Source: a virus | Lineage: Duplodnaviria > Caudoviricetes | IMG/VR virus record: IMGVR_UViG_3300051212_000147 | Location: 1 to 24,632 of that record | Length of the DNA: 24,632 nt | Direction: 5' to 3' (one strand) | Shown here: positions 16,802-22,970 of the stretch, piece after piece | Position numbering within the stretch: position 1 is the first letter of the stretch | Layout of the letters: each line of letters starts with the position of its first letter | The notes under the pieces: generated by a model | What the model was told of the DNA's origin: nothing | Databases searched by the model: none | What the model saw: the letters and a program-made list of their open reading frames with translations, nothing else | Made by a program: the position numbers and the translations under genes

Positions 16802-17932
16802 ATGTCAGATAACTTAAACGAAAAGTTTGAGGAGCTTGTAACTGAGTCAGATGTAATGACGAGTGCGCTCTCTCCCGCTATTGTTCCTGGACAATCATCT
16901 GGTATCGGTCAATACATGCATCCAGTAACTGGTCAAGTAAGTGACGCGCAAACTCGCGGCGGTCATAAAGATTCAGGTTTTGAACTACCTACCTCTCTTG
17001 CTCCTGGGCAGTCAGAGGAAGATAATGGTGGTTCAGATTTTGAATCACCAGAAGGTGAGGATAATCCTGGAGCAAAGGCTGCTAAGCATAATAGCAAAGT
17101 TAGCGATGAGCAAACTCGCGGCAAGCACCAAGATTCAGGTTTCTCGGTTAAGTCATCTGGGTATGGCGTTGAGAATGGTCCTAACAATACAAAAGTATTT
17201 GGTATGGAAGCAATCAACTATTCCGCTGCGGAAGATGTTGCTGCCCTTACCGAAGGCGAAGAGTTCTCTGAAGATTTCAAAGCAAAGGCAACTACAATTT
17301 TTGAAGCGGCTGTTAAGTCACGTATCGAAGAGCAAGTAAATGCTATTGCTGGTCAACTTCAAGAGCAATTCTCTGTCAAACTCCAAGAGGAGATTGCTGC
17401 ACTTGCAGAGAAAGTTGATGAAACACTCAACTATGCAATCACCACTTGGGTAGAAGAGAACCAAGTTGCACTCGATGCAGGTCTCAAGCTTGAGATCGCT
17501 GAAGAGTTCATGGGTGGTCTCAAAAAAGTTTTTGAAGAAAACTACCTCGACCTTCCATCTGAGAAGGTAGATGTTGTGGCAACCATGACCGAGGAGCTTT
17601 GTGAAATGGAAGGTCGTCTCAACGAACAGGTTGAGCGTAACATTGATCTTAATAATAAACTCGCTGGTTATCAAAAGCAAGTTATCCTTTCTCAAATGAG
17701 CGAGGGTCTTGTTGATACCCAAAGAGAAAAACTTGCTTCTCTTGCAGAAGGAGTTGAGTTTGTTTCGGAAGAAGATTTCCGCAATAAAGTTTCAACACTC
17801 ATCGGAAGTTATTTCCCTAAGCATGTAGTTAACGAGCAAGTAACACCTGAGGTCTCGGGCGAGCAATCATCGGAAGAAGTATCACCAGTAATGGCTGCAT
17901 ACCTTCAGGCGATTTCCCGCTGGAGCAACTGA
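16802..17932 (+). CDS. gp22: Prohead core scaffold protein gp22
   Basis: SEDFKAKATTIFEAAV and EKLASLAEGVEF motifs; coiled-coil acidic composition; directly before g23. Confidence 0.93.
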   Translation: MSDNLNEKFEELVTESDVMTSALSPAIVPGQSSGIGQYMHPVTGQVSDAQTRGGHKDSGFELPTSLAPGQSEEDNGGSDFESPEGEDNPGAKAAKHNSKVSDEQTRGKHQDSGFSVKSSGYGVENGPNNTKVFGMEAINYSAAEDVAALTEGEEFSEDFKAKATTIFEAAVKSRIEEQVNAIAGQLQEQFSVKLQEEIAALAEKVDETLNYAITTWVEENQVALDAGLKLEIAEEFMGGLKKVFEENYLDLPSEKVDVVATMTEELCEMEGRLNEQVERNIDLNNKLAGYQKQVILSQMSEGLVDTQREKLASLAEGVEFVSEEDFRNKVSTLIGSYFPKHVVNEQVTPEVSGEQSSEEVSPVMAAYLQAISRWSN

Positions 17933-17936
17933 TTAT

Positions 17937-17944
17937 AATAAATA
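17937..17944 (+). promoter_or_regulatory. Late promoter variant AATAAATA
   Basis: Intergenic g22-g23, upstream of SD GGAG. Confidence 0.75.
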
Positions 17945-17979
17945 ATTTTAACCCCAATCACTCAACGGAGTAAAAGCAA

Positions 17980-19395
17980 ATGTCAAGTACACGACTTTTG
18001 CAGGAAAAGTGGGCACCTGTTCTCGGTCATAAAGACCTTCCTGAAATTAAGGACGCATATCGCAGACAGGTTGTTGCTACCCTGCTAGAAAACCAAGAGC
18101 GTGCAATCCGCGAAGAGCATGGAATGCTCAACGAAGTTGCCGTCAACTCACTCGGCGCTGGAACCATCTCACCTGCTGGTTCAGCTCTATCATCGACCAA
18201 CACTGCTGGTCTTGCTGGTTTCGATCCTATCCTAATCAGCCTAATCCGCCGTTCAATGCCTAACCTTGTCGCTTATGACATCGCTGGCGTTCAACCAATG
18301 AGCGGTCCTACTGGTCTTATCTTCGCAATGCGTGCTCGTTACGAAGCTCAGAACGGTGCTGAGGCACTATACTATGAGCCAGACGAAGCATTCTCTGCTG
18401 GTTCAGATGCTTCACAAGGCGCTTACAGCGTTCGCAACGCTTCTGGTGTTGGTGGTGATGCAGAAGGCAACAACCCTGCAGTTCTTAACGACGGTTCACC
18501 TGGCACTTATGAAGTTGCTCGCGGCATGTCTCGTGAAACTTCTGAAATTCTAGGCGAAGCTGGTACACTCTTCCGCGAGATGTCATTCAGCATCGAGAAG
18601 ACCTCGGTGACTGCTAAGACACGCGCTCTCAAGGCAGAATACACCCTAGAACTAGCACAAGACCTCAAGGCAATCCATGGTCTTGATGCTGAGCAAGAGC
18701 TCGCCAACCTACTCTCAAGCGAAATCCTCGCTGAGATTAACCGTGAAATCATCCGTACCGTTTACACTGTTGCACTTCCTGGTGCTCAGAACGACGTTGC
18801 AACTCAGGGCACTTTCGACCTTGACATTGATTCAAACGGTCGTTGGATGGCAGAGAAGTTCAAGGGTCTCCTATTCCAGATTCAGCGTGATGCCAACGCA
18901 ATCGGTCAACTAACCCGTAGAGGTAAGGGCAACTTCATGATCTGCTCTGCAGACGTTGCTTCCGCTATGTCAATGGCTGGTATGCTTGACTACGCTCCTG
19001 CTCTCAACACTTCACTCAACGTTGATGACACTGGTAACGTATTTGCTGGTGTTCTCCAGGGTGGTATCCGTGTTTACATCGATCCATTCGGTGCTCCTAT
19101 CTATAGTCAGTCACAAGCTGCTAAGCACTACTACGTCATGGGTTATAAGGGCACATCACCTTATGATGCTGGTCTCTTCTATTGCCCATACGTTCCTCTC
19201 CAAATGGTTCGTAGTATCAACCCTGATACCTTCCAACCTAAGATTGGATTCAAGACCCGTTACGGCATGGTCAGCAACCCATTCGTTTCGACAACGAACG
19301 TTAATGGTATCGCTGGTGCTACTCCAGACGGTTCAGCTCTTACTCCTAATACTAACCAGTATTACAGAAGAGTTAAGGTTATCAACCTCACCTGA
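17980..19395 (+). CDS. gp23: Major capsid protein gp23
   Basis: EKWAPVL, GVQPMSGPTGLIFAMR, ELAQDLKAIHGLDAE, FYCPYVPL and FQPKIGFKTRYG motifs. Confidence 0.99.
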   Translation: MSSTRLLQEKWAPVLGHKDLPEIKDAYRRQVVATLLENQERAIREEHGMLNEVAVNSLGAGTISPAGSALSSTNTAGLAGFDPILISLIRRSMPNLVAYDIAGVQPMSGPTGLIFAMRARYEAQNGAEALYYEPDEAFSAGSDASQGAYSVRNASGVGGDAEGNNPAVLNDGSPGTYEVARGMSRETSEILGEAGTLFREMSFSIEKTSVTAKTRALKAEYTLELAQDLKAIHGLDAEQELANLLSSEILAEINREIIRTVYTVALPGAQNDVATQGTFDLDIDSNGRWMAEKFKGLLFQIQRDANAIGQLTRRGKGNFMICSADVASAMSMAGMLDYAPALNTSLNVDDTGNVFAGVLQGGIRVYIDPFGAPIYSQSQAAKHYYVMGYKGTSPYDAGLFYCPYVPLQMVRSINPDTFQPKIGFKTRYGMVSNPFVSTTNVNGIAGATPDGSALTPNTNQYYRRVKVINLT

Positions 19396-19412: not shown

Positions 19413-19437
19413 AAGACCCCTTCGGGGGTCTTTTTTT
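19413..19437 (+). terminator. Rho-independent terminator with c(UUCG)g tetraloop
   Basis: aagacccc-TTCG-ggggtctt, with a T7 tract at 19431-19437, directly after g23. Confidence 0.95.
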
Positions 19438-19442
19438 ATGCA

Positions 19443-19450
19443 AATAAATA
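19443..19450 (+). promoter_or_regulatory. Late promoter variant AATAAATA
   Basis: Immediately after the g23 terminator and before the g3 SD AAGGA. Confidence 0.7.
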
Positions 19451-19468: not shown

Positions 19469-19981
19469 ATGGCAGCAAAATGGTATGATGACCAACCAAA
19501 GAATAGAAATTTTTTGGCACCTAACGGTTTTAAACTTGATTTAGATATATTTGCTGGCATAGATTTTTATTGCCAGAGAGCATCTATTCCAGATATTAAT
19601 GTTCCAAATGCAATTGTTCCAACTCCTTTTAGACCTATTCCAATCGTATCTTCTGGTGGTTTGTCTTATGGTGATTTGAGAGTTACATTTATTATTGATG
19701 AAGACATGACCAATTATATTAATGTTTGGAATTGGATTCAAAAAAATAATTTGGGAGAAGGATTTGATGATTCGGAACCACAATATTCAGATGGCAGATT
19801 ATTAATTTTAAATAGTAATTTTAAAGAAAACATTATTGTTAATTTTGAACAATTATTTCCAGTAGATTTAACTGAAGTATCTTTTGATGTTGGAGATACC
19901 GAAGTTGAATATTTAACAGCGGACGTAACATTTAAATTTGTGCGCTATACTTTTAATAACAAACGAATGAAGAAACTATGA
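19469..19981 (+). CDS. gp3: Tail tube terminator / completion protein gp3
   Basis: NRNFLAPNGF, YGDLRVTFIIDEDMTNY, LFPVDL and YLTADVTFKF motifs; post-g23 position typical of cyanomyoviruses. Confidence 0.88.
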   Translation: MAAKWYDDQPKNRNFLAPNGFKLDLDIFAGIDFYCQRASIPDINVPNAIVPTPFRPIPIVSSGGLSYGDLRVTFIIDEDMTNYINVWNWIQKNNLGEGFDDSEPQYSDGRLLILNSNFKENIIVNFEQLFPVDLTEVSFDVGDTEVEYLTADVTFKFVRYTFNNKRMKKL

Positions 19982-20454
19982 AATTTGATGACTTGAGAAC
20001 ACTCTTTAATCATGTTAAATCAGAATGGCAAGAAGATTCACATATCGACTTCCAGTTTAAAAACAAACAATACTCAGCAGACCTAGCACAAATCTCGCTA
20101 GACATCCCTTACCAGCACAATAAATATTTAAACTTCTACAACGATTTCTCTACGGAGAAGACAGCACTGGAATTTCAGTATCGTATGAAGTTAAAAGAAA
20201 AAAGAGAATATTATCAAGGCGAAGCCGATCCTGAAGTTTACAAAGAAAAACCTTTTGGGCAATCCATAAAAACATCCGAGAAGATGAAAGTATATCTAGA
20301 AGCGGATGAGGATTTGATTAACATTGAGATGAAAATAGAGTTTATTAATAAGGCACTTTTCTTTTTGGATAATGTTCTTAAAATGATTTCCAATAGAAGT
20401 TTCCAAATTAAAAACGCTATCGAGTGGGAGAAATTTATTAACGGTAGCACCTAA
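19978..20454 (+). CDS. uvsY: Recombination mediator UvsY
   Basis: IPYQHNKYL, EYYQGEADPEVY and RSFQIKNAIEWEKF motifs. Confidence 0.9.
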   Translation: MKFDDLRTLFNHVKSEWQEDSHIDFQFKNKQYSADLAQISLDIPYQHNKYLNFYNDFSTEKTALEFQYRMKLKEKREYYQGEADPEVYKEKPFGQSIKTSEKMKVYLEADEDLINIEMKIEFINKALFFLDNVLKMISNRSFQIKNAIEWEKFINGST

Positions 20455-21932
20455 TGACAAATCTGGCAGTTGCAAAAAAGAACAACATTTATCTGACTAT
20501 CAAAGCAGAACCTCATGTTCATTACGAATTAGCAGATTACTTTACGTTCGACATTCCTAATGCCAAGTTTATGCCACAGTATAGAAGTGGTATGTGGGAT
20601 GGCAAGATTAGATTGTATTCACCAGGAACAGGTGAACTATATTGTGGTTTAATCTCACACCTGAAAGAATGGTGTGATATCAAAAACTATTCTATTTCAT
20701 ACGAACCCAATAAGTTCTACGGAGATGTAGAAGAAAAGAACGACCAGATTACCTTAGAAGGTGTCAAAGGATTCATGGCGGCTGTGTGTCCGAATCATAA
20801 CCCAAGAGATTATCAAGTGCAAGCAGTATACGAAGCACTTCTAAATAACCGCAGGTTACTTTTGTCGCCTACTGCATCAGGTAAATCCCTGATGATCTAC
20901 TCTTTGGTTAGGTATTACTATGCCTCAGAATACAAAAAGACGGGTAAGAAAACGCTCATTATTGTTCCTACCACTTCGCTTGTTGAGCAAATGTATAATG
21001 ATTTTGCCGACTATGGTTGGGATACTGATAGCTACTGTCATAGAATATATGGTGGAAAAGATAAAAACGTAGAGAAAGCAGTTATCATTTCCACTTGGCA
21101 ATCTATCTACAAGTTTCCTAAACGTTGGTTTGATGACTTTTCCTGTGTCATCGGTGATGAAGCACACCTATTCAAATCCAAATCACTCACTGGCATCATG
21201 ACTAAACTACATGAAGCTAAGTATAGGTTTGGTTTCACTGGAACACTGGATGGTTCTGCTACTCACAAGTGGGTGCTAGAAGGATTGTTTGGTGAGTGTA
21301 AGCATGTTACCAAGACAGAGAAGCTTATTAAGGAAGGTCATCTATCTGATTTCAGAATCAAAGTTCTTTTGCTGAAGCATGAGAGAATGGAGTTCTTTGA
21401 TTATCAAGGAGAGATTGATGCAATTGTTGACAATCCAAAACGTAATCGTCTAATTAAAAATCTTGTGCGTGACTTAGAAGGAAACTCCCTAGTTTTATTC
21501 AACTATGTGGAGCGTCATGGAGTGCCACTTTACGAGGCAATAAATAGTATTGTCGAAGAAGGTCGTAAAGTTTTTCTGGTCTATGGTGGTGTAGATACAG
21601 AGGAACGCGAAGAGATTAGACGCATCACTGAAACTGAAAACAACGCAGTGATTGTTGCTTCATACGGAACATTCAGCACTGGCATCAACATTCGTAATCT
21701 ACACAATGTTGTATTTGCTTCACCATCAAAATCAAGAGTAAGAAACTTACAATCTATCGGTCGTGTATTGCGTAAGGGCAATAATAAAACTTACGCTACT
21801 CTTTATGACATTGCCGATGAGTATTGCAGAACACCACAGAAAAATTATACGCTGAAACATTTAGATGAGCGTTTGAAAATATATGAAGAAGAAAAGTTTA
21901 ATGTAGAAATCATCAAACTCGATTTAAAATAA
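20454..21932 (+). CDS. uvsW: SF2 helicase UvsW
   Basis: WDGKIRL, PRDYQ, SPTASGKS, GDEAH, GFTGT, STGINI and QSIGRVLR motifs. Confidence 0.97.
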   Translation: MTNLAVAKKNNIYLTIKAEPHVHYELADYFTFDIPNAKFMPQYRSGMWDGKIRLYSPGTGELYCGLISHLKEWCDIKNYSISYEPNKFYGDVEEKNDQITLEGVKGFMAAVCPNHNPRDYQVQAVYEALLNNRRLLLSPTASGKSLMIYSLVRYYYASEYKKTGKKTLIIVPTTSLVEQMYNDFADYGWDTDSYCHRIYGGKDKNVEKAVIISTWQSIYKFPKRWFDDFSCVIGDEAHLFKSKSLTGIMTKLHEAKYRFGFTGTLDGSATHKWVLEGLFGECKHVTKTEKLIKEGHLSDFRIKVLLLKHERMEFFDYQGEIDAIVDNPKRNRLIKNLVRDLEGNSLVLFNYVERHGVPLYEAINSIVEEGRKVFLVYGGVDTEEREEIRRITETENNAVIVASYGTFSTGINIRNLHNVVFASPSKSRVRNLQSIGRVLRKGNNKTYATLYDIADEYCRTPQKNYTLKHLDERLKIYEEEKFNVEIIKLDLK

Positions 21933-21933
21933 T

Positions 21934-22353
21934 ATGGAAGAAGAATTTTATGCAACTATTAAATTAACTTCTGGCGAAGAGATTGTAGCTAAAGTTAGTT
22001 ACGATCCAAATGATGATGTTATTGTAGTTTTAGAACCTCGTTTAGTTGAAAAGGTTGAGGAAAGAAAAAATAATTTAATCTATGAAGGTATTGTATTTGA
22101 TGATTGGATTAATGCAACGTATGAAGATATGTTTATTATTCCTCGTTGTCAAATTATTACTATGACGGAACTTGATTCTAAGATTGCATCTTGTTATGAA
22201 GAACATCTAGAAGACAAATCAAAATATAAAAAAAGAAATTCCCCTAAACCTAAATCAAATAATAAAAGACAAAACCCTAGAAGCCATGAAGGTTATCTAG
22301 GGTCTATTAAAGAAGCTAAGAAGTTATTAGAAGAGATATATAATAAATCTTGA
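21934..22353 (+). CDS. 139-aa hypothetical protein with putative Sm-like N-terminal fold
   Basis: IKLTSGEEIVAKV...VIVVLEPRLV...FIIPRCQIITM resembles the Sm1/Sm2 strand pattern; it has a basic linker and sits between uvsW and g55. The fold call is an inference. Confidence 0.7.
   Translation: MEEEFYATIKLTSGEEIVAKVSYDPNDDVIVVLEPRLVEKVEERKNNLIYEGIVFDDWINATYEDMFIIPRCQIITMTELDSKIASCYEEHLEDKSKYKKRNSPKPKSNNKRQNPRSHEGYLGSIKEAKKLLEEIYNKS
22264..22303 (-). terminator. Putative minus-strand intrinsic terminator
   Basis: Perfect 8-bp inverted repeat accctaga (22274-22281) / tctagggt (22296-22303). On the minus strand it is followed by tttgtctttt. Confidence 0.45.
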
Positions 22354-22363
22354 AGGCGCAACA
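22264..22363 (-). ncRNA. Predicted ~100-nt antisense small RNA
   Basis: Bounded by a perfect sigma70 promoter and a hairpin/U-tract, with no SD-led ORF inside. Existence is inferred. Confidence 0.4.
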
Positions 22364-22368
22364 TTGCT

Positions 22369-22397
22369 ATTATATACGGATTTAAGAGTTGTGTCAA
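22369..22397 (-). promoter_or_regulatory. Perfect-consensus sigma70 promoter on the minus strand (TTGACA-N17-TATAAT)
   Basis: tgtcaa at 22392-22397 (rc TTGACA), 17-nt spacer 22375-22391, attata at 22369-22374 (rc TATAAT). Confidence 0.8.
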
Positions 22398-22402
22398 GCC
22401 CC

Positions 22403-22431
22403 TTTACAATTCTCGTTGGGTATGTTACAAT
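22403..22431 (+). promoter_or_regulatory. sigma70-type early/middle promoter for g55 (TTTACA-N17-TACAAT, extended -10 TG)
   Basis: -35 at 22403-22408, TG at 22423-22424, -10 at 22426-22431. Confidence 0.75.
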
Positions 22432-22454: not shown

Positions 22455-22970
22455 ATGTTAACAGTCGAAAAGCCGATGGGTAGACGAACTACAAAAGAAA
22501 ATTACGTCAACAACCGAGAGTTCCTCGATGCCCTGATGGTGTATCGACAGCAGGTTGCTGCTGCTAAAGAAGCAGGTCTATCCAAACCTAAAGTTCCTAA
22601 TTATATTGGAGAGTGTTTTCTTAAAATTGCTACACACCTATCATACAAACCTAACTTTGTCAACTACATGTTTAGGGAAGATATGATTTGTGATGGTATT
22701 GAAAATTGTCTGCAGTATATTGATAACTTTAATCCAGAGAAATCAACCAATCCATTTGCTTACTTCACTCAGATTATCTATTATGCTTTCTTGCGTAGGA
22801 TTCAACGTGAGAAAAAACAACTAGAAATCAAATCCAAGATTCTTGAACGGTCAGGATATGATGAAGTTTTGCATACAGATAGTTACAGTGGTGACATGAT
22901 AGGATATAATAGCAGCAGTGCTGACATGAACAGCATCAAAGAAAACCTTGAAATGCGAAGCAAGCGATGA
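22455..22970 (+). CDS. gp55: Late-transcription sigma factor gp55
   Basis: YVNNREFL, YIGECFLKIA, NFVNYMFREDMICDGIENC and NPFAYFTQIIYYAFLRRI motifs. Alternative start at 22476. Confidence 0.96.
   Translation: MLTVEKPMGRRTTKENYVNNREFLDALMVYRQQVAAAKEAGLSKPKVPNYIGECFLKIATHLSYKPNFVNYMFREDMICDGIENCLQYIDNFNPEKSTNPFAYFTQIIYYAFLRRIQREKKQLEIKSKILERSGYDEVLHTDSYSGDMIGYNSSSADMNSIKENLEMRSKR

Follow-up and report, generated by a model that had tools for sequence, protein, structure and literature searches.

The T4-like viruses related to the phages of cyanobacteria and of SAR11 almost all appear to keep a strong host-type promoter that points backwards and has no gene behind it. Judged by comparison of sequences, the element is a real and strongly selected regulatory element, and it is wider and differently built than was proposed by the sequence-only reading of the window, i.e., of the whole analysed stretch of 24,632 nucleotides. 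The feature that is conserved is a short palindrome centred on TGT that covers the predicted start, and not the stem further downstream. This palindrome, the extra copies of the element in the same genomes, the forward promoter with its coupling to g55, and a position resembling that of the T4 origin oriF were all missed by the sequence-only reading.

A backward promoter at the end of the uvsW operon

The window comes from the genome of a T4-like cyanophage, in which the genes named by PHROGs follow one another on the plus strand as major head protein, tail tube, UvsY, UvsW-type helicase, a small core gene, gp55, and gp47, with all the long core ORFs on this strand. The gene names proposed earlier hold, for g55 and uvsW by PHROGs and for the Sm-like gene by its match to PF16243 (Table 1). 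Against PDB sequences, the Sm-like protein gave a single unrelated weak match only. The predicted backward start lies 9 nt from the stop codon of the Sm-like gene and ~430 nt from the end of uvsW, and the element occupies part of the 101-bp gap that separates this stop (22353) from the start of g55 (22455), together with the sequence immediately preceding this gap. The terminator scan of the window listed no plus-strand terminator between the Sm-like gene and g55; a strong intrinsic terminator is found at 19413-19432, 3' of the major head gene. Late-promoter-like NTAAATA sites are located at 19444, 19808, 20120, 20841, and 21540 of the window.

Table 1. Positions of the genes and elements discussed, numbered along the window
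Feature	Position	Strand	Remarks
Tail-tube-like gene (g3 of the sequence-only reading) and uvsY	19469..20454	+	PHROGs; upstream members of the same gene run
uvsW helicase gene	20454..21932	+	PHROGs
Sm-like protein gene, 139 aa	21934..22353	+	PF16243, Sm_like, E 6.5e-10
Hairpin and U-rich run	22264..22305	-	Lies within the coding sequence of the Sm-like gene; may be a terminator, for this subclade alone
Conserved -6..+14 element over the predicted start	22349..22368	-	Predicted +1 is the G at 22362
Core palindrome GCAA-CA-TTGC	22358-22367		Over the predicted start; TGT centre family-wide
Backward sigma70-type promoter	22369..22397	-	-35 TTGACA at 22397-22392, 17-bp spacer, -10 TATAAT at 22374-22369
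Forward sigma70-type g55 promoter	22403..22431	+	TTTACA-N17-TACAAT, TG extension
g55 late sigma factor gene	22455..22970	+	PHROGs; first gene of the replication module

The 12/12 consensus promoter that had been noticed on the minus strand is real, and it is the sole exact match to TTGACA-N17-TATAAT in the window, where 0.07 matches are expected by chance and at least one occurs in 6 of 100 shuffles. In line with the claim that this promoter serves no minus-strand gene, no ORF of conserved length lies behind it. There is no ATG in +1..+60 of 43 of the 57 cyanophage-like loci, and a hidden peptide gene was rejected because no conserved ORF is found downstream of the promoter.

Conservation was followed in cyanophage-like loci (80 g55 loci and the window, 75 distinct) and in pelagiphage-like loci (80 fetched with the gp55 of HTVC008M, 71 distinct). 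All 75 distinct cyanophage-like loci have the backward promoter with at least 10 of the 12 consensus bases and with a 17-bp spacer, which bears out the expectation that the spacing upstream of g55 would be conserved in relatives. The -35 is TTGACA in 74 of the 75 and the -10 is TAnnnT in all of them, with the first T, the A, and the last T invariant and the middle variable; the element is thus conserved as a sigma70-type promoter, with its -35 TTGACA, its -10 TAnnnT, and a spacer within 16-18 bp. The promoter is also present in 50/50 distinct loci fetched through the Sm-like gene, and in ten named cyanophages, Syn9, P-SSM2, S-CRM01, and the pelagiphage HTVC008M. Its predicted minus-strand start falls at ~123,698 in Syn9 (NC_008296.2) and at ~84,439 in S-PM2 (NC_006820.1), and the predicted plus-strand starts of the extra copies in these two phages fall at ~52,776 and ~162,772. 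For the pelagiphage-like loci, 69/71 reached at least 10/12 within 350 bp before inspection, and the element was found in 70/71 after it: in the two low-scoring loci it lies further out, the high score of L304 was spurious, with no element within 1.7 kb, and in L324 it had been misplaced by the automatic scoring. At the same threshold, a control stretch inside g55 gave 1/75 and 1/71. Conservation in 75/75 and 70/71 loci implies that the backward promoter is under selection.

In the ACG-2014f record W04, four copies of the element (at 107,062, 150,761, 213,669, and 38,929) all have TTGCCA in place of TTGACA as the -35, a lineage-wide shift. A general phage promoter architecture was rejected, given that the back-to-back pair is the sole strong one in 4/4 long records, and at other late-gene ends in the long records the element is absent, with S-SRM01 as the one exception. 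Pseudomonas phage pf16 was set aside as a carrier of the element, since its genes are ordered differently and the closest promoter on its minus strand drives ORFs of that strand. The common cyanophage version of the motif matched 15 times in bacterial and archaeal genomes, and none of these was titled Synechococcus or Prochlorococcus.

The comparison of unusual loci suggests that the element goes with the 3' end of the operon of uvsW and the Sm-like gene rather than with g55. Of 17 loci with odd spacing that were inspected, 12 have an additional ORF that separates the element from g55; in these 12, the element keeps its place directly after the Sm-like stop, g55 is served by a promoter of its own, and in four of them another ORF separates uvsW from the Sm-like gene. 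In S-CRM01, the Sm-like gene and the element are seemingly separated by a short ORF, which makes the operon end the anchor. An ORF inserted between uvsW and the Sm-like gene in L325, L336, L341, and L343 has 153-159 aa and is methyltransferase-like by eye, and three of these loci have a 12/12 forward promoter at the uvsW end or at the start of the insert. In G003, uvsW is seemingly split by a frame change at ~115,726-115,730, which may be a sequencing error.

In the window, the -35 elements of the forward and backward promoters are 5 bp apart and the predicted starts ~76 bp apart, so that the reverse start falls within -80..+20 of the forward start, as in the PR/PRM type of arrangement (PMC3167631). 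The gap between the two -35 elements is 2-9 bp in 51/58 cyanophage-like loci, and the seven longer gaps show no helical phase. Among the pelagiphage-like loci, gaps of 10-70 bp are in a 10.7-bp phase in 47/48 loci (R 0.74 at 10.7 bp; 0.63 on unique values), clustering at 13-14, 22-25, 32-37, 43-47, and 55-58 bp. In 20/68 pelagiphage-like loci, the closest strong forward promoter is found at a distance of 71-301 bp; six pelagiphage-like loci have no forward partner, and 21 cyanophage-like loci have none at 10/12.

The start palindrome and the extra copies

Directly 3' of the -10, an inverted repeat surrounds a TGT whose G is 7-8 nt from the -10, at the expected +1. In the window the core reads GCAA-TG-TTGC on the minus strand, and it is less symmetric in the nearest relatives of the window. 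TGT is found at the predicted start in 56/57 cyanophage-like and 53/57 pelagiphage-like distinct motifs, compared with 0/64 and 0/50 of the forward g55 promoters used as control. The arms form at least four pairs in 41/57 and 36/57 motifs versus 17/64 and 11/50 controls, and fewer than four in 16/57 and 21/57. When arms were swapped between loci, the observed pairing was reached in 0/2000 cases in each set, a result that is inflated by relatedness. The arms are highly varied (AGGC/GCCT, CCGG/CCGG, ACCC/GGGT, AGACT/AGTCT, GGTCT/AGACC, AACGG/CCGTT, AACAG/CTGTT, and, in S-CRM01, CTTAG/CTAAG). On the non-template strand, the non-Watson-Crick pairs are T-G/G-T in 29 cases and A-C in none, with 24 of the 29 coming from the cyanophage-like loci, among which one motif type prevails.

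These properties point to an operator-like, co-evolving palindrome at the predicted start. Given that the 5' arm precedes the predicted +1, the repeat would function at the DNA level, either as an operator or as a hairpin, and not as RNA. The arms differ between fairly close relatives yet remain complementary, which would be in keeping with an operator and equally with a DNA hairpin. The search for a factor that reads the palindrome found none. The Sm-like protein was rejected as the reader of the motif, since it shows no specific covariation with it (partial rho 0.05-0.13, no better than g55, with 90/123 loci parsable).

Extra copies were searched for in ten long records by ranking promoter-like sites by their likeness to the motif of the same record. 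A second copy was found in 5/10, matching at 16-18 of 20 bases in four and at 13/20 in one, and each extra copy is closest to the copy of its own genome; in the five records without a second copy, the best site matches at 9-11 of 20 bases. When all viral contigs were searched with the pattern of the window's lineage, irrespective of gene context, the 55 matches fell into just two settings: 29 are at uvsW/g55, and the other 26 directly follow a gp5-like baseplate gene and fire in sense into a small gene. Seven of these 26 sites were mis-called by the ORF finder, and the three distinct ones have the same upstream gene; S-PM2 has a comparable site. The pelagiphage-type pattern gave 31/31 matches at uvsW/g55 over the viral contigs. 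In other lineages the copies precede small genes that are unrelated between lineages, two of which resemble cp12 and cpeT, and S-SRM01 has a second antisense, back-to-back copy.

In 14 genomes, the likeness of copies within a genome compared with that between genomes was 0.96 versus 0.62 for -6..-1, 0.71 versus 0.52 for +1..+14, 0.48 versus 0.39 for the spacer, and 0.39 versus 0.35 beyond +15. The P values of this comparison are inflated, given that the copies were picked partly by resemblance and other hits were left out, and for this reason the ranking in the ten records is the fair test. The likeness of copies within a genome suggests a lineage-specific reader. Copies can also arise by recombination, and L430 has a tandem duplicate.

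The duplication in L430 (1400-1900) spans ~269 bp and includes the whole backward promoter and the region of the end of the Sm-like gene. An A-tract-rich stretch precedes the second copy in several genomes and is missing in others; between the gp5-like gene and the second copy it covers ~75 bp (L089 2660-2737, L105 ~17,920-17,995, and L284). The distance between copies is 78,284 bp in G001 (19,711 and 97,995), 78,263 bp in G002 (84,474 and 162,737), and 91 kb in G004, and the similarity of G001 and G002 is possibly due to chance. Perfect DnaA boxes of cyanobacterial type occur in pairs or triplets in L214 (Syn9 52,565-52,597), L268, L270, L281, and L282, and also in G002 (19,231-19,256) and S-CAM3 (61,244-61,270); in five related phages, DnaA boxes precede an extra copy by 136-227 bp.

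Possible roles of the element

Any role has to be read from what was observed, namely the conservation, the position, the covariation of the palindrome, the extra co-evolving copies, and the spacing. The reading that we favour, with a probability that falls somewhat short of even, is that a backward promoter gated by a phage factor brakes late expression, by antisense transcription or collision and by competition with the g55 promoter. Host RNA polymerase would fire the backward promoter early, and antisense transcription would run through, probably being cut at ~100 nt only in the subclade of the window, and would collide or pair with the Sm-like and uvsW transcripts. Polymerase at the backward promoter would compete with the g55 promoter ~76 bp away. 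Later, a lineage-specific phage factor would close the backward promoter by binding the start palindrome, and the sense copies, which drive small accessory genes, would be shut by the same factor.

There are precedents for parts of this scheme: a forward promoter is activated when a reverse promoter that overlaps it is repressed (PMC3167631), antisense interference by as_nblA stops leaky expression in a cyanobacterium (PMC13283749), and T4 keeps UvsW, which unwinds origin R-loops, for late times (PMC3016281). The sequence-only reading had suggested that read-through antisense to uvsW, uvsY, and g3 could silence premature late expression. An anti-late role fits a promoter that is conserved, gene-less, and fixed to where the operon of uvsW and the Sm-like gene ends; a brake may not be needed, given that late promoters require gp55 anyway.

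A brake and a replication origin are not mutually exclusive. In the latter case, the main rival to the brake, the element would be the counterpart of T4 oriF, which we consider rather unlikely, the sequence tests having given a mixed picture: the backward transcript would stay as an R-loop and prime replication, the palindrome would fold in the displaced strand and keep the bubble open, and the extra copies would be extra origins that UvsW shuts off late. The position resembles that of oriF, a promoter past uvsW that fires towards this gene; in T4, the annotated oriF is found on the minus strand, 881 bp beyond the uvsW stop, and is directed back at uvsW, and the distance here is ~430 nt. According to PMC3016281, T4 origins consist of a promoter and an A+T-rich stretch, have no common motif, and are often also gene promoters. 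The region +20..+90 has 69% A+T versus 64% for the loci, and its median instability percentile is 0.089, similar to the 0.07-0.12 of T4 oriF, with 25/75 loci in the top 5%. Nonetheless, this A+T-rich zone is coding and is not on average the least stable part of the loci.

With standard energy tables, the RNA:DNA hybrid is weaker than the duplex over +26..+100 in 57/57 and 56/56 loci, by a sequence proxy, and in the window also over +1..+25, which argues against a stable R-loop. The bias of palindrome mispairs towards T-G/G-T on the non-template strand counts in favour of an origin, as does the finding that the genes behind the sense copies are unrelated between lineages; the 16/57 and 21/57 motifs with fewer than four pairs count against it. 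Perfect DnaA boxes, scored with the general consensus, number five in 4/75 loci versus 0.6 expected, and 17 near 6/20 extra copies versus 1.6, five of these six being one related site. Against this, there is no DnaA box near the element of the window, and none in the named cyanophage loci (0/10) or in the pelagiphage-like loci (0/57). Moreover, codon-position skew does not switch sign at the element in ten records, bar one local change. GTCGAC did not cluster in the window or in the pelagiphage-like loci (0/80), and no consistent enrichment of palindromes was found within 5 kb of the element in ten records. The literature search found no paper mapping a cyanomyovirus replication origin. A still more specific proposal, which we regard as unlikely, is that the promoter and the TGT palindrome form the universal replication origin of aquatic T4-like phages, with a primer made by host RNA polymerase, a hairpin in the displaced strand, arms read by a phage initiator, secondary origins, and firing coupled to g55.

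It is also conceivable, with a low probability in our judgement, that the RNA is a by-product and that the backward promoter serves only to tune or insulate the one of g55, through supercoiling, shared A/T-rich upstream DNA, or a head-on stop of late read-through, with the copies alike through recombination. In line with this, the two promoters are spaced tightly or in phase and have A/T-rich DNA between them, and back-to-back promoters can stimulate each other via supercoiling, although in that system the coupling is independent of phasing (PMC5175336). Against this reading, the element remains with the Sm-like gene when it is apart from g55. Promoter cassettes do recombine in T4-type phages (PMC2839356), and L430 has its duplicate; however, the copies match at -6..+14 and hardly in the spacer or beyond +15, unlike what plain copying would give.

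The sequence-only reading had placed a ~100-nt non-coding RNA at the centre, defined by an 8-bp perfect stem and a U-rich tract downstream of the promoter. Both are present: the stem is formed by 22274-22281 and 22296-22303, extends to 10 bp on the minus strand with G-U pairs, and is followed on that strand by a U-rich run that ends near 22264. The whole 103-nt candidate folds modestly (z -1.61, with 15/200 shuffles as good). The hairpin alone, cut out post hoc, has a z of -3.44 on the minus strand and -3.86 on the plus strand, and since it folds well on both, the strand is not picked. Covariation of the stem was seen among close relatives of the window and not family-wide: in 16 of them, the stem is 83.5% paired and the covariation score is 0.238 (0/500 shuffles), with four doubly changed pairs, a number that is not significant (78/500 shuffles) in rows that are related. 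Constraint from the protein was assessed with 40 synonymous-codon shuffles per locus in 118 distinct of 124 loci. The hairpin goes beyond these shuffles in 8/24 loci of the window's group and in 8/94 others.

Terminator-like sites within 200 nt were found at scattered positions in 15/57 cyanophage-like loci (control 5) and 8/56 pelagiphage-like loci (control 12), and in the window one lies at +87..+91. Rfam gave no match, its three weak hits being far below gathering scores. A defined, structured RNA of ~100 nt is therefore not supported for the family as a whole, since neither hairpin nor terminator is family-wide; with a local stem and scattered terminators, such an RNA is plausible for the subclade and is not what is conserved. 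Like CfrI, the predicted transcript would be antisense without an ORF of its own, and a conserved 3' end or terminator as in a CfrI-like RNA was not found in the two sets (15/57 versus 5; 8/56 versus 12). We give a low probability to the reading in which an RNA of ~100 nt ending at the hairpin would pair with the end of the Sm-like mRNA or act in trans with the Sm-like protein. The stem covariation of the subclade, the terminator-like site of the window, the Sm-fold protein next door, and the antisense RNA CfrI known in S-PM2 (PMC2984593) speak for it; the few loci that exceed synonymous shuffles, the non-significant number of doubly changed pairs in related rows, the lack of a family-wide terminator and of an Rfam match, and a hairpin equally stable on the mRNA strand speak against it. 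A functionless promoter-like sequence arisen by chance, which the perfect matches in 6/100 window shuffles would allow, is practically refuted by conservation with promoter-type constraint in 75/75 and 70/71 loci.

Relation to known systems and significance

T4 oriF (ori uvsY; NC_000866.4, 115,321) shares with the element a promoter past the uvsW stop that fires back at uvsW, and moderately A+T-rich DNA downstream (PMC3016281). It differs in that the T4 promoter is MotA-dependent and drives uvsY, whereas here a consensus sigma70 site is gene-less, uvsY precedes uvsW on the strand opposite to the promoter, and the predicted start is covered by a palindrome with a TGT centre. Cyanomyoviruses have no motA according to PMC2984593. 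In lambda PR/PRM and aroP P1/P3, as here, a reverse promoter lies within 80 bp of the forward start and a protein closing one promoter could open the other (PMC3167631); the difference is that here the reverse promoter is gene-less and persists when uncoupled from the forward one.

CfrI of S-PM2 (PMC2984593, PMC5931967) and as_nblA of Nostoc (PMC13283749) are non-coding transcripts against the 3' part of a gene, as is predicted here. In contrast to them, the element occupies another locus, is much more widely conserved, and has no conserved RNA structure or end, and its start carries a conserved DNA-level element. The PeSL cassettes of RB49 and phi1 (PMC2839356) are likewise a repeated sigma70 promoter with an inverted repeat in T4-type phages. 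Here, however, there are 1-4 copies, one of them fixed in the core genome and antisense, the arms have 3-5 bp with no G/C terminator stem, and the core copy has no start codon behind it. The G/C stem-loop terminator, the many copies in hyperplastic regions, and the ribosome site with start codon that characterize PeSL were not found.

In the full-text literature covered (including PMC9964418, PMC9004378, and PMC3710371), no description of the backward element was found. The Syn9 transcriptome has reportedly been described by Doron et al. 2016, and the start-site tables of that study and of Stazic et al. 2016 may list the transcript of the element. Antisense transcription has been seen in Kyanoviridae (PMC10976474), and cyanomyoviruses are described as being without the MotA/AsiA switch of T4, with their early and middle transcription control called unclear (PMC2984593).

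What emerges is one short element in one fixed place in nearly every genome examined, from at least two host groups, and this element must serve one of two jobs, the control of transcription or the origin of replication. If it were an origin, the back-to-back geometry would tie origin firing to the synthesis of the late sigma factor. Given that the element is located exactly in the cultured phages Syn9, S-PM2, S-RIM2, and HTVC008M, and that its palindrome can be mutated, the questions of transcription control and of the replication origin in these phages become directly testable.
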